The translations under genes and the position numbers were made by a program. A stretch of DNA of 35,887 nt, taken from a virus (lineage: Duplodnaviria; Caudoviricetes). Below are positions 1 through 35,887 of this stretch, piece by piece. A model generated the notes under the pieces. It was not told where the DNA came from, ran no database searches, and was given only the letters and a program-made list of their open reading frames with translations. The DNA lies in IMG/VR virus record IMGVR_UViG_3300010048_000855, positions 1-35,887 of that record; one strand, given 5' to 3'. Position 1 is the stretch's first letter. The number at the start of each line of letters is the position of its first letter.

Positions 1-183
1 ATGGCAAACGTTCATGAAGCAGTACAGAACCTCAGAAATCAGGCCATCGCGCTTCTCCTTGATGAGCGGGGGAAGATCGACGATCAGTTGAAGCAGCTCG
101 GGCATAACAATGGAAACGCCCCCAAACGTCGGGGGCGCAAACCGAAAGAACCTACGCAGCAGATCGAGCCCGTCCAGCCTTGA
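1..183 (+). CDS. small coiled-coil protein with AT-hook-like motif (putative nucleoid-associated/DNA-binding protein)
   Basis: 60 aa; N-terminal amphipathic helix followed by KRRGRKPK. Confidence 0.6.
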   Translation: MANVHEAVQNLRNQAIALLLDERGKIDDQLKQLGHNNGNAPKRRGRKPKEPTQQIEPVQP

Positions 184-733
184 ACGACTCGACCAATTTC
201 GATTTCACTCCATTCCGGACCCGGTGCCAGAACTCGGCATCGGGTTCATTGATTCTCCGCACGATCAGCTCATCGAACCATGCGTCAATGTCCTTCATGT
301 AGCTTCCCTTGACGCTATCGCTCGGACTGGTAAGCTCTGGTGTGTGAGTGGATGGGGGTGTGCATTTCCCCTTCCCTCTTTCCCGCGCTTCGATATGAGG
401 CGCGGGATTCTTATTCTCCGGGAACCACCGTTCCAGCCTTTCGCCGGCCTGTTTGAACGGTAGGCCGTCCAGTGCCATGACGAGGTTGAGGCAATCTCCC
501 CACCGGTTCCCGACCATGTTCATCCGCGCGCACGCCGGGTGTTTGCACTGCCACCGGTTGCTCGGAAGATGCACGTTGAATGCGTTATTGTTCTTGTCGC
601 CGGCGGGGTGCATCGGGAGAGGACACGCAGCAAACGCGTATTCCTCGTTCGACATCGACCGCCGGAGCCTCACGCCATAGTGCAGAAGCACATCCACGAT
701 CAGGATGCGTTCCTTCATCTCTCTAAAGTCCAT
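152..733 (-). CDS. CHC2 zinc-finger (DNA primase Zn-binding domain) protein lacking a TOPRIM domain
   Basis: MDFREMKERILIVDVLLHYG start, CPLPMH...FNV...WQCKHPAC, GDCLNLVMALDGLPFKQA; SD GAGGAG upstream. Confidence 0.8.
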   Translation of the reverse strand: MDFREMKERILIVDVLLHYGVRLRRSMSNEEYAFAACPLPMHPAGDKNNNAFNVHLPSNRWQCKHPACARMNMVGNRWGDCLNLVMALDGLPFKQAGERLERWFPENKNPAPHIEARERGKGKCTPPSTHTPELTSPSDSVKGSYMKDIDAWFDELIVRRINEPDAEFWHRVRNGVKSKLVESFKAGRARSAA

Positions 734-26683: not shown

Positions 26684-27397
26684 ATGACGCTTATGGCGCA
26701 CACCGGTATGACGGAATTGGTGACCCGCGAACAGCTCGCGGAGATCCTGCCGCCTGAAGGAACCGATACGCACAAACCGATCGCTCACATCAACCTCGTC
26801 ACCTCACTCATCGAGTCTCTTTCCTTCCGGCATATCAACGTCGTGAAGGAGGAGTACGCGGTCTCGAACGATGGCATGAAGCTGTTCGGATGCCTCGACC
26901 TCGAAACGATGGGCGACGGCTTCCGCTTCGCCATCGGACTGCGCAACGCGAACGACAAGTCCATGCGGCTCGGCCTCGTGGTCGGCGTTCGCATCCTCGT
27001 CTGCGACAACATGGCGTTCTCGGGTGATTTCGAGCCTGTGCTCGCCAAGCATTCGAAGCGCTTCAATCTGAACGATGCGCTCGCGATCGGCATGGAGCAG
27101 ATGCAGCGCAACTTCAAGCCAATGGCCGACCAGATCGCAGGATGGCGCCAGGCGCAGCTCTCTGATGGACAAGCAAAGGAGATCATCTACCGCGCATTTA
27201 TCGAAGACCAGCTCGACGCGCCGAAGCATCTCGCAAAGATCGTCCACCACCACTACTTCGAGCCGGAGTATCCCGAGTTCACCGCGCGAACGAAGTTCTC
27301 ACTGCAAAACGCCTTCACGAGCGCCTTCAAGGTTCTCGACCCCATCCCGCAATACAAAGCGACCGCCGATCTCGGCCGGTTCTTCACCCTGAATTGA
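26684..27397 (+). CDS. DUF932/DUF945-family protein
   Basis: THKPIAH...GLRNANDKS...G.RILVCDNMAF...KH; SD-like GAAAGGGG. Confidence 0.85.
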   Translation: MTLMAHTGMTELVTREQLAEILPPEGTDTHKPIAHINLVTSLIESLSFRHINVVKEEYAVSNDGMKLFGCLDLETMGDGFRFAIGLRNANDKSMRLGLVVGVRILVCDNMAFSGDFEPVLAKHSKRFNLNDALAIGMEQMQRNFKPMADQIAGWRQAQLSDGQAKEIIYRAFIEDQLDAPKHLAKIVHHHYFEPEYPEFTARTKFSLQNAFTSAFKVLDPIPQYKATADLGRFFTLN

Positions 27398-29861: not shown

Positions 29862-29960
29862 TTAAAGGGTCGTCAAAATTAAACCAGTCCGATTGAATCG
29901 GGCTTGTCCGAACCAGGACAGGGGTTGAACTGTGACAAATTGGCACACCCCACCCTTTAA
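29862..29960 (+). promoter_or_regulatory. putative structured leader (multi-stem junction) ending at the start codon of the SLT-like gene
   Basis: TTAAAGGGT/ACCCTTTAA closing stem around three hairpins. Confidence 0.4.
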
Positions 29961-30388
29961 TGAAACGTCTCATATGGATTTCCTCGGTTTTTGCCTTTAT
30001 AGCCCCGTTTCTCTCAGTCAGCGCCTCCTATCGCATTGCCGCCCAAAGTCCTTCCCAAACTGAAATTCAGGGCCGGAATTGGGAATATACAGTCCCGTTC
30101 GTAGTCCACAACGTCGCAGACATCGAAAAACTGATCCAATGCGAAAGCCAGGGCGTAAATATATCCCGGCCGGACTCCGACGGCATCTTTTCGGATGGGG
30201 TTTTACAGTTTCATCGTGGTCCGCTCGACACGATGGCAAGCAGTACGTGGGCGTCATTTTCCAAGGCGAGCGGTATCTCCGGAAGCCCTATCAACCCAAG
30301 CGACGCGATCCGGATGGCAGACTGGGCGATTGACCACGACCTCTTGGGGCACTGGACCTGCGCACATATTCTTCATCTGGTCACCTGA
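29960..30388 (+). CDS. secreted lysozyme-like/lytic transglycosylase (SLT-like) protein
   Basis: Signal peptide; IQCESQG (catalytic Glu), GVLQF, TW, NP...W..C. Confidence 0.7.
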   Translation: MKRLIWISSVFAFIAPFLSVSASYRIAAQSPSQTEIQGRNWEYTVPFVVHNVADIEKLIQCESQGVNISRPDSDGIFSDGVLQFHRGPLDTMASSTWASFSKASGISGSPINPSDAIRMADWAIDHDLLGHWTCAHILHLVT

Positions 30389-30502
30389 ACGGGCCTATAC
30401 TCGTATCGCGCCAGTTCTTCTTTGCGGTTGGGAAGCCGCATCGTCCCATGGACGCCAAGCTCACTGGAGAACGGACTGGCCGCTGAAGGCTTCCACAGCA
30501 TA

Positions 30503-31107: not shown

Positions 31108-31159
31108 GTTTTCCCCAGCCCTCCCCTTGCGCTTTTCCCTCATCATGCTTTCATGAAGA

Positions 31160-31790
31160 TGCCTCAATATCCCGTAATCCTTGCATGCTTTCGCATCGGT
31201 ATCAGCGCTTCTCGCAAGGATTCGGCTGGTACTGAGTCGAAAGCATTTTTTTCACCTGAGAGTGAAGGTGTCCGGGCAGACCCCGGCCCACGCAGGGCAA
31301 CGCTTGAGACTTTGCGACCCTGTAAGGCGGAACGTGGTTCGTTGATGGGGGATCGGCATAAAGCAGGCCTGTTTGAGCAGTTCGACTCTGCTCCCCCACC
31401 AGCGAATCATAGGGTAGTTTGGTAGAGCCACCGCCGACGGAAACGCCGTCATGAACGGCCCCTGAATGACGCAGGAAATGTCCTCCGGCTTCGAGGACAG
31501 AGAAGGGCGACTCGGTTTCCCCGTCCAGCTTCGACCCCTGCGATCCAACGCGAAACGGCAAATCGGCGACGAGACACAGCGAAGGGTGAAATATAAAAGA
31601 GCCGCCATATTCGTGCTTTGCGAGCTGGATGTGAATATCAACCCATCATTGATGGGAGCGCGCATAATAATCATCCAGCTCTCAGAGCGCGAGCCGCCGA
31701 TTTTGAAAACAGACCCCCTCTGTAAAAAGTCGGAGGGCAAATCAGCAGGAAAAAAGGAATTGCGAGTTACCTGCCCATCTCCCCGCATAT
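31160..31790 (+). ncRNA. candidate large structured ncRNA (~630 nt) with pseudoknot and tRNA-like module
   Basis: No credible CDS; more than 10 stems, with G-U pairs favouring the + strand; boundaries approximate. Confidence 0.6.
31347..31401 (+). other. tRNA-like mini-module (acceptor stem + T-arm + ACCA, no standard D/anticodon arms)
   Basis: GGGGG...AGCAG-TTCGACT-CTGCT-CCCCC-A-CCA. Confidence 0.55.
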
Positions 31791-31846
31791 AATTGGCGCA
31801 ACTTCACTTCGCCGTTGGTACAGCAAGCCTGGGAGAGCATGTCGGA

Positions 31847-34618: not shown

Positions 34619-35668
34619 TCACCACGTCGCTATGACCGCCCGGTTGATCGCCTCTTGCCGCGTGGAGATCCACTGCGAGTAGTGCTTTTCTACGATCCTC
34701 GGACTATTTCCCAAAATCGCGGCGACCTCGCTCACGGGCACGCCCTTCGAAAGCAGCTCGACCGCGAACGTGTGGCGCCAGCGGTGCGCGTGGATGTGGA
34801 CGCCGGCGAGAGTAGAGAGGCGCCGGAAGGTCCGCTGCCAATCGCCCACGCAGGACTTCGGATTCCCCTCGCCAGACCAGAAGAAATACTCGCCAGCTTT
34901 CATTTTTTCGAGTGTGCTCTTCATCTCCGCATGAACCGGCAACTGAACCGGCTTGCCGTTCTTGTGTGTCCGCAGCGTAATCATTCCATCCGCAACGGCC
35001 GCTCGCTTGAGCTGCACTACATCGCGTATCCGCAGACCCGTCCACCGCAATACTGCAACGAATGCGGCAACGCGGTCGCGGTTCGCTCCCCCATAGATTC
35101 CTTTTGCCGGAAAGAGCGGAATAGCCCAGGCGATCTTCTCCAATTCGGCAACGTCGAAGGGCTTTTTTTCGATTGCCATTTCCTTTGGAGGACGCAACGG
35201 CTTTGCCGGATTATCGGCGATCCACTTTCGCTCATTACAGAATTTGAAGAATGACTTCAGTCGTTCGAGCTTCTTTATCGCCGTCGATGGCTTGAAATTC
35301 CAGCCTTCCCGGAAGAGGGCAATGTCGTCGGGCGTGAGCGCGGCAATGGACCGGTTGCCGAACATCTCGACGAGTTCATCACAGAGACGGTCGAATTTTC
35401 GCGTCGTGTCATCCGAAAGGCCGCGGCTCTTTTGATCGTTAACGAACCGCTCGAACGCTTCCTTAATCTGCGGAACCGATACGCCATTAATCTCCCATTC
35501 GCGCACCAGCTTTTGCGCGGCTTCCCAACTCCGCACATCAAGGGATTTCCGCACCATTTCCCCGCGCAGCCGCCCTTCGACCGCGATCGGACAAGTGCAA
35601 TGGCGGTGCCTGCGGCCCTTCGAGGCGAACTTGCAGGACTGCATATGTCTGCGAAAAATCGTGAGCAC
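34619..35668 (-). CDS. int: tyrosine recombinase/integrase
   Basis: TGLR, HK, HRWRHTFA, LGNS, HY catalytic set; SAM-like core-binding domain; likely GTG start at 35668. Confidence 0.95.
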   Translation of the reverse strand: MLTIFRRHMQSCKFASKGRRHRHCTCPIAVEGRLRGEMVRKSLDVRSWEAAQKLVREWEINGVSVPQIKEAFERFVNDQKSRGLSDDTTRKFDRLCDELVEMFGNRSIAALTPDDIALFREGWNFKPSTAIKKLERLKSFFKFCNERKWIADNPAKPLRPPKEMAIEKKPFDVAELEKIAWAIPLFPAKGIYGGANRDRVAAFVAVLRWTGLRIRDVVQLKRAAVADGMITLRTHKNGKPVQLPVHAEMKSTLEKMKAGEYFFWSGEGNPKSCVGDWQRTFRRLSTLAGVHIHAHRWRHTFAVELLSKGVPVSEVAAILGNSPRIVEKHYSQWISTRQEAINRAVIATW

Positions 35669-35753
35669 AGATCGAGCTTCCCACGAGTAGCACACGCAGT
35701 ACACACGCAGCTTTTGCGTTCACTGCAAACTATTGAATTTAAAGAAGAAAGGA

Positions 35754-35887
35754 TGGTGGAGGCGGCGGGAGTCGAACCCGCGTCCGAAATCGCTGTCAGC
35801 CAGGAGTGTCCATGCTCTGTCCGCTTCCGCATGTTTTCGCCCGGCGGCCTCAGAACGGACAAGATGGCCGACGAGCTAGTCCGATGA
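35754..35887 (-). ncRNA. ssrA: tmRNA 3' portion (runs off the window); probable prophage attachment site
   Basis: Reverse complement ends TTTCGGACGCGGGTTCGACTCCCGCCGCCTCCACCA, a tmRNA-type T-arm/acceptor end; upstream sequence is not a tRNA cloverleaf. Confidence 0.88.

Follow-up and report, generated by a model that had tools for sequence, protein, structure and literature searches.

The stretch of DNA analysed in this report (the window, 35,887 nucleotides) contains on its + strand a structured non-coding element that is real, conserved and without a match to any Rfam family. It belongs to an undescribed modular family of RNAs, which occupies one slot in related prophages, is built around exchangeable cores and carries variable cassettes in a standard stem. 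This agrees with the initial annotation, which had proposed an undescribed structured RNA and did not recognise it as GOLLD or ROOL; the Rfam models of these two give no match either. By analogy with ColE1, we tentatively read the element as an RNA-primed replication origin that might specify a primer resembling RNA II, and our confidence in this reading is somewhat less than even.

The window covers the greater part of a temperate phage whose integration site is the 3' end of a tmRNA gene (35754..35887, - strand, Rfam match); this attachment site has a 26-bp duplicate 5.3 kb to the left of the window. Its recognised genes are those for a terminase, a capsid protein, a peptidase, DUF932, a BglII/MT-A70 pair, a DndB/DGQHR-type protein and an integrase. 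The slot of the element is preceded by the DUF932 gene (26684..27397, +), which is the family marker, and by a 142-aa ORF (29960..30388, +) that most relatives also have ahead of their slot, and is followed by the tyrosine integrase (34619..35704, -). The host is likely an acidobacterium, because one homologue of the element (type A, below) resides in a Terracidiphilus genome placed in the same genus as the window's genome. ARAGORN detected 0 tRNA genes in the window, and a single tRNA-Tyr occurs at the far left end of the prophage. That left end (L211 6761-11791, outside the window) also encodes an excisionase-like HTH protein, two TraG/VirD4-like ATPases and a Replic_Relax-like ORF, together a conjugative-mobilisation-like module inside a tailed prophage, which is partly common to G821, G823 and G824. 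Directly after the 142-aa ORF there is a 77-nt multi-hairpin block (30408-30484), 86-97% identical in six relatives (L241, L227, L228, L239, L240 and L259) and with no Rfam match at gathering threshold, which is possibly a separate small RNA or the leader of the next ORF. Elsewhere in the window, an early promoter region (1030-1135) contains a DnaA-box-like site together with a 10-nt operator-like sequence that recurs several times in imperfect form.

Structure and conservation of the element

The element lies in the largest gap of the gene list (31108-31839; 732 nt, the next being 533 nt), in accord with its first description as the longest gene-free stretch of the window. A 178-aa ORF is open there on the minus strand of the window (31252-31788), but in the homologues all frames are broken by stops and the conserved blocks contain indels of 1-2 nt, which rules out a conserved protein. 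The preference for the + strand, proposed earlier from G-U pairs, is borne out by a folding z of -5.1 on this strand (0/20 shuffles) as against a weak -1.8 on the other, and the stretch that follows the 5' hairpin folds better than chance on its own (z -3.1; 0/100 shuffles).

The upstream border is marked by a 9-mer which we take to be a DnaA box (31109..31117, +), one letter off the TTATCC(C/A)CA usual in the family, and by a predicted sigma70-type promoter (31127..31154, +) with a -35 of TTGCGC, a 16-nt spacer with TG and a -10 of TTTCAT, from which transcription is predicted to start near 31161. This candidate promoter, which the initial annotation had pointed out, fails a strict consensus scan, yet it is the best site on the + strand and its spacing is shared by the relatives (16 nt for the best + strand promoter-like site in 20/22 related elements). 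A DnaA-box-like 9-mer stands shortly upstream of the -35 in 19/22 of them. The labels DnaA box, boxA, Cro-like, HNH-like and VRR-NUC-like are throughout our own assumptions, made from the sequence with no family call.

The promoter is followed by a 5' switch (31176..31252, +) of a type that we call alpha and that is predicted to be a terminator/anti-terminator. It consists of a 20-bp hairpin (31185-31246) ending in U7, the loop of which (31214-22) pairs with the leader (31176-84). Both helices of the H-type pseudoknot or switch previously described here stand, the leader helix with 9/9 positions paired and the crossing helix (31196-206/31225-35) with 11/11, 2 of them G-U, the latter being extended by 31185-93/31238-46. 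Covariation was found as well: among 7 alpha sequences 99.5% of the cells are paired and 12/26 pairs have a compensatory change (0/500 shuffles). Compensatory pairs account for 1/6 of the alpha leader helix and for 3/5 of the leader helix in another form of the switch, beta (12 sequences), which replaces alpha in 2/4 type A phages; both forms were found with cores A, B and C. A similar leader and U-tailed hairpin was also seen in phages unrelated to this family (L297, L306, L322, L359, L363, L376; L280; L340). It is located upstream of Rfam Betaproteobacteria-1 in six unrelated-phage loci (6 matches in 11 loci), among them L322, where it comes after a short ORF that we take to be Cro-like; in L280 it is followed by a G-tract.

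The core in the window (type A, + strand) has three conserved blocks. Block 1 (31250..31345; 79-96/104 positions identical in 3 homologues) includes the 5' strand of a long-range helix (31250-57/31584-91), as well as a hairpin with the loop GACTTT (31308-13), for which AAAGTC (31726-31) is a possible pairing partner. Block 2 (31401..31609; 190-194 of ~205 identical in 3 homologues) is a multi-stem domain with candidate loop-loop pairings (31486-91/31599-604 and 31439-44/31515-20) that are invariant in the homologues. Block 3 (31693..31752) contains the second copy of a direct repeat, and conservation ends there, short of the end at 31790 that was first assigned to the element; beyond it lies an A run, without a hairpin resembling a terminator. 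Several helices noted from the window alone were located at or near the positions given for them (CCGGG/CCCGG, CCACG/CGTGG, CAGGG/CCCTG, TGTCCTC/GAGGACA and ACAGA/TCTGT), and CCGATTTT pairs with AAAGTCGG as described. TTCAC and GTGAA can pair too, but TTCAC is better supported in the long-range helix of block 1, where there is a compensatory change. The sub-words of the proposed GCG-TCAT-AGGG junction were found, but its AGGG/CCCT portion is not kept in an alignment of three homologues.

Between the blocks are two cassettes. Cassette 1 (31337..31407, +) consists of a standard 16-bp stem (31337-52/31392-407) with a 39-nt insert, and corresponds to the tRNA-like module of the initial annotation; a T-arm is present (31375-93), but there is no tRNA (ARAGORN, 0 genes; no Rfam cloverleaf). 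This insert differs in every homologue, unrelated inserts of 81, 131 and ~350 nt taking the place of the tRNA-like module, so that the tRNA association is not a trait of the core. The ~20-bp stem that had also been assigned to the core (31611-31/31672-92) is indeed paired (20/21), but belongs to the variable cassette 2 (31611..31692, +), a standard stem with a 46-nt insert that is absent in L241 and different in L196 and L257.

The type A core was found in three further distinct phages (L031/L241, L035/L257 and L129/L196/G543), in all of which its central block is 93-95% identical. The neighbouring genes of the type A phages have 66-83% DNA identity and their integrases are 38-55% identical; they insert at differing RNA genes (tmRNA, tRNA-Met and tRNA-Ser), and their downstream genes differ (AIPR in L031). 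The suggestion that the RNA is a partner of the downstream TM+DGQHR genes is rejected because neighbouring genes come and go, these two following the type A core in 1/4 phages and a different core in L245. Type A blocks also occur at 90-99% identity in contigs from 7/8 metagenome runs (7 studies). The core shows too little variation for covariation to be assessed statistically; three compensatory pairs are visible, at 31255/31586, at 31303/31314 (C-G, G-C or A-U across homologues and runs) and at 31508/31523 (C-G to U-A in metagenome run X11).

DNA searches for type A gave 0/60 matches in genomes of relatives, 0 true matches in 400 genomes of the family (10 short chance matches) and 1 true match in 400 genomes of the genus, where a second match lay among unrelated secretion-system-like genes. 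Pattern scans of viral loci returned mostly chance matches and were true in 0/18, 2/14, 2/83, 2/58 and 2/6 cases (the same two phages each time); those of metagenome loci were true in 2/2 (one identical to the window and excluded from counts), and those of genome loci in 1/10. A BLAST search of phage and plasmid collections with the element gave no match.

One slot with exchangeable cores and cassettes

With DUF932 as marker, 29 viral loci and 11 genome regions were collected, and we counted the 22 loci (window and L196 included) that have a DUF932-to-integrase interval with the integrase downstream. Judged by heuristics plus reading of the sequences, a structured element is present in the same slot in 21/22 of these; the exception is L263, with a weak integrase match and no element in the 9 kb scanned. 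Among the loci left uncounted as truncated or without an integrase match (L230-L237, L242, L250, L254, L256, L258-L262 and L264-L266), only L254 was seen to have an element. Among DUF932 loci that belong to other types of element, 0/12 had a structured element. The near-universal presence of the element contrasts with the patchy occurrence of flanking RM, AIPR and DGQHR genes. The next ORF is on the same strand in most loci and convergent in 6 elements (L227, L244, L251, L252, L255 and L257; greedy ORF lists).

The elements follow a common grammar, in which a DnaA-box-like 9-mer, a promoter-like site and a long U-tailed hairpin crossed by a leader pairing precede the core. The cores fall into types A (4), B (7), C (3) and D (3), plus singletons, with blocks ~80-98% identical within a type and little shared sequence between types, although A and B have the same 13 nt in one loop and both show a long-range pairing with the 3' end. 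They are mutually exclusive, unrelated cores replacing each other in one slot. The core B RNAs of L240 and L227 are interrupted by a module that combines a G-tract, a direct repeat and a presumably VRR-NUC-like ORF and is accompanied by a 12-bp duplication; in L248 the 5' switch is followed by a similar module alone, and in L228 and L240 the core is preceded by an ORF that we take to be HNH-like.

Each core examined has an internal direct repeat, with the second copy of which it ends. In the window, copy 1 (GGCAAATCGGC, 31557..31567, +) is invariant in 4/4 type A elements and copy 2 lies at 31736-46 (+, in block 3); this 11-nt repeat is not above chance (best repeat score 9.0 vs 9.3 in shuffles). 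It could be explained by an RNA-internal switch, because a partial complement (GCCGATTTT) lies between the copies. In types B-D both copies change together. For type B the identity of each element's own copies is the maximum, reached in 24/5040 permutations owing to ties of four identical rows, a significance overstated by kinship; types C and D gave 1/6 permutations each, likewise overstated by the shared history of kin. No exact 8-nt complementary third strand for the repeats occurs in 17 RNAs. Tracts of the form G5+-TA(A)-G5+ are found in 7 elements, and type A is without a G-tract. By a simple heuristic, 0/17 elements have a hairpin resembling a terminator at a distance of up to 160 nt from the 3' anchor, and GC skew has no switch at the element.

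A total of 23 cassettes was recognised in 17 loci, the tRNA-like module and the 20-bp stem of the window being two of them. All are carried in one standard ~16-bp stem; they measure 39-201 nt and nearly all are different. Three stand in tandem in L249, and L238 and L248 are minimal elements without cassettes. In the slot of L229 (G500:C2:2091122-2092302) the cassette is ~490 nt long and densely structured; it includes fragments resembling tRNA and has no Rfam match. One cassette motif of ~60 nt recurs in L257, L255 and L228, that is with cores A, D and B, and this recurrence suggests that cassettes might move between element types. The relaxed mitochondrial mode of ARAGORN called every cassette a tRNA and was dismissed as noise.

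Replication genes and possible functions

No initiator, DnaB or DnaC-type loader was recognised by Pfam or PHROGs in the window prophage and five relatives, the majority of the early ORFs being without a family match. When 5 complete relatives were searched in six frames, DnaB_C, IstB/DnaC and HTH_36 exceeded the cut-off in 0/5 each. The only recognised replication gene of the family is a primase or its zinc finger: the window encodes a CHC2 primase zinc-finger-only protein (152..733, -; Pfam E 0.009; atlas 0.95), a candidate helper, and the relatives have either this form or a full DnaG-type primase. The zinc-finger-only gene (152-733, -) runs against the direction of the early genes. A Replic_Relax-like protein is encoded beside TraG-like ATPases by the window prophage and by G821; these genes were not found in G820, which is also type A. 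DnaB is encoded by G836, a phage outside the family in which a similar 5' hairpin occurs. The host encodes PriA, RNase H and RNase III.

Of the two candidate functions, an RNA-primed origin, which the initial annotation had offered as an alternative, fits the comparative evidence somewhat better than a stand-alone RNA of the GOLLD/ROOL class, that annotation's lead reading. On the origin reading, host RNA polymerase would start near 31161, and DnaA may modulate the promoter. The 5' switch would either terminate transcription at U7, whereby an integrated prophage is kept quiet, or be held open by the leader pairing. The ~590-nt read-through RNA would then fold in such a way that its repeat copy 1 meets the template strand at copy 2, and the RNA-DNA hybrid so formed would persist. 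From this hybrid, host RNase H and Pol I could make a primer, as in the ColE1 mechanism (PMC4412123), or PriA could load on the displaced strand, with the participation of the phage primase or its zinc-finger-only form. The cassettes would be peripheral passengers, possibly released by RNase III.

The origin reading is favoured because the slot is near-universal (21/22, against 0/12 for other element types) while the flanking genes are patchy, because unrelated cores are swapped in one slot as alternative replicons would be, and because an initiator, DnaB or DnaC-type gene was not recognised. It also gains from the repeat copies of types B-D, which stay alike as they change, from the 3' ends without a terminator-like hairpin, and from the similar 5' hairpin in unrelated phages, which follows a short, presumably Cro-like ORF and precedes Betaproteobacteria-1. 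Further arguments for it are the G-tracts in 7 elements, which recall the requirement of ColE1 for an rG/dC hybrid as PMC4412123 describes it, and the precedent of the cluster A mycobacteriophages as given in PMC7157519, together with PriA and RNase H in the host. The same reading is weakened because the type A of the window has no G-tract and a repeat that is invariant and not above chance, because no antisense promoter was found and no plasmid carries type A, B or D, and because a Replic_Relax-like protein is present and a divergent initiator can hide among early ORFs, most of which match no family. In addition, an integrated prophage would need to silence its origin RNA, a primer is not expected to bear unrelated cargo cassettes, and the unrelated G836 combines a similar 5' hairpin with a DnaB of its own.

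The main rival, which we regard as rather unlikely, is a stand-alone scaffold resembling GOLLD or ROOL, in which the cargo is the point: a conserved core would fold or oligomerise, and stems cut by RNase III would carry small RNAs such as tRNA mimics, decoys or anti-defence RNAs. The 93-95% identity of the core, the variable inserts at its stem ends and the cassettes themselves (23 in 17 loci in a shared ~16-bp stem, including the ~490-nt one of L229 and the three in tandem of L249) are what might be expected of a scaffold, as are the RNase III of the host, the location of the slot among defence-type genes and the variable linker of GOLLD and ROOL, in GOLLD sometimes with tRNAs (as outlined in PMC12286853). 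On the other side, GOLLD, ROOL, raiA and OLE have no Rfam match here, and a scaffold leaves unexplained the little-alike cores that replace one another, the co-varying direct repeats, the G-tracts, the cassette-free minimal versions (L238 and L248) and the missing initiator. The primer and scaffold readings can be combined.

Three further readings are much less probable. The very high conservation of the core, the HNH-like ORF (as we label it) of L228 and L240 and the presumed VRR-NUC-like module with its G-tract and 12-bp duplication in L227 and L240 might point to an RNA that is selfish or catalytic, such as a ribozyme or an intron-like element, in which the insertions are peripheral and splicing, ligation or circularisation would take place at the direct repeats; the family matches no ribozyme or intron, interrupts no gene, holds a fixed position in nearly every family member and has its own predicted promoter, and we consider this very improbable. 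A structure that acts as single-stranded DNA, for example a lagging-strand origin or primosome site, would suit a family in which a primase or its zinc finger is the only recognised replication gene, and such motifs can be single-stranded DNA according to PMC5737381, but many changes keep pairs via G-U, the + strand folds far better than the other and there are a conserved (predicted) promoter and a U-tailed hairpin, all of which make this reading slightly more remote still. We give least credence to a long cis-regulatory leader or anti-terminator for downstream accessory genes: the promoter with its terminator-like switch, the 3' end with no terminator and the same-strand ORF that comes next in most loci would agree with it, but in 6 elements that ORF is convergent, and the downstream genes are unrelated between phages.

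Returning to the origin reading, one might go further, in a speculation that we consider improbable, and see in these elements a new class of self-targeting origin RNAs, in which a co-evolving internal repeat would replace the initiator protein and which would double as carriers of RNA cassettes, with plug-in stems for small RNAs (tRNA mimics and other motifs) that are swapped or released, integron-like at the level of RNA. A replication initiator cannot be recognised in many temperate phages, and the element is a compact candidate for what starts replication in such a case: a ~700-bp cassette with putative built-in specificity pairs that occurs in four or more interchangeable versions and is carried by almost all members of a family without a recognised initiator. 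If the origin reading is true, RNA-primed origins extend from the ColE1/MRB plasmids and the plasmid-like mycobacterial prophages to integrating phages, and would provide replicons for Acidobacteria. Few genetic tools exist for these bacteria. If instead the scaffold reading is true, the family would add a new scaffold RNA of the GOLLD kind, whose cassettes amount to a library of >20 small RNAs not yet catalogued.

Comparison with catalogued RNAs and known systems

A scan of the window against Rfam at gathering thresholds yielded only the tmRNA, and one with E up to 10 added 4 chance matches, in line with the initial annotation's view that the element is undescribed; 17 related elements had 0 matches at E 0.5. 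Likenesses of the elements to group I and II introns, RNase P and hammerhead ribozymes, seen by eye, were dropped in view of no model match, as was a likeness by eye of core B to Betaproteobacteria-1, a scan of L245 having given only chance matches. The open-access literature searched yielded no description of the element. PMC5737381 describes 224 motifs, among them Betaproteobacteria-1 (RF02932), which resembles the present cores in following a look-alike 5' hairpin in unrelated phages, and ARRPOF and PAGEV, structured motifs tied to Rep-independent or predicted origins; the models of these three do not match the window or 18 related elements.

As characterised in PMC12286853, GOLLD and ROOL are large, ornate, prophage-borne RNAs with conserved domains around a variable linker, which in GOLLD sometimes carries tRNAs. 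The element shares this appearance, and its two variable cassettes in the window, one of them with a T-arm, match the variable-linker trait by analogy only. It differs in matching none of the covariance models (GOLLD, ROOL, raiA and OLE), and in having several linkers in a standard stem, an exchangeable core and a 5' terminator-like switch. GOLLD is often beside tRNA islands; the window is without a tRNA gene. Both GOLLD and ROOL assemble into multimeric nanocages that consist of RNA only.

Origins of the ColE1 type encode no Rep, have an upstream promoter that yields a pre-primer of 500-600 nt, depend on RNase H and Pol I, and make an antisense RNA I against the 5' end. The likeness of the element to ColE1 RNA II and to MRB (pB1067) would lie in a gene-free, origin-sized transcript, predicted here like its upstream promoter, and in a Rep not being recognised, with many ORFs unassigned and one of them Replic_Relax-like (PMC4412123 and PMC3035462). 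The hybrid of ColE1, according to PMC4412123, requires an rG stretch paired with dC of the template, and the G-rich tracts and self-matching repeats of the related element types could likewise anchor an RNA-DNA hybrid. Unlike these plasmid origins, the element is located in an integrating phage and has swappable cores and cargo cassettes, its type A has no G-tract, and no antisense promoter comparable to that of RNA I was found above shuffles on the minus strand of 22 elements, a weak test. Types A, B and D have no plasmid match.

In cluster A mycobacteriophages (Alma, LadyBird and RedRock), prophage origins based on RNA lie beside parABS, according to PMC7157519. As that account presents them, they are ncRNA regions of ~400-500 bp near the lysogeny cassette of phages without repA; the prophages they serve are plasmid-like, with parABS in place of an integrase, and lytic growth can do without them. 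The prophage of the window has an integrase and an att site and parABS was not found in it, so the role of its element would be in lytic replication after excision. By the features compared, the element is thus not a member of GOLLD, ROOL, the ColE1/MRB origins or the mycobacteriophage RNA origins, and by analogy with the latter two it may work as they do.
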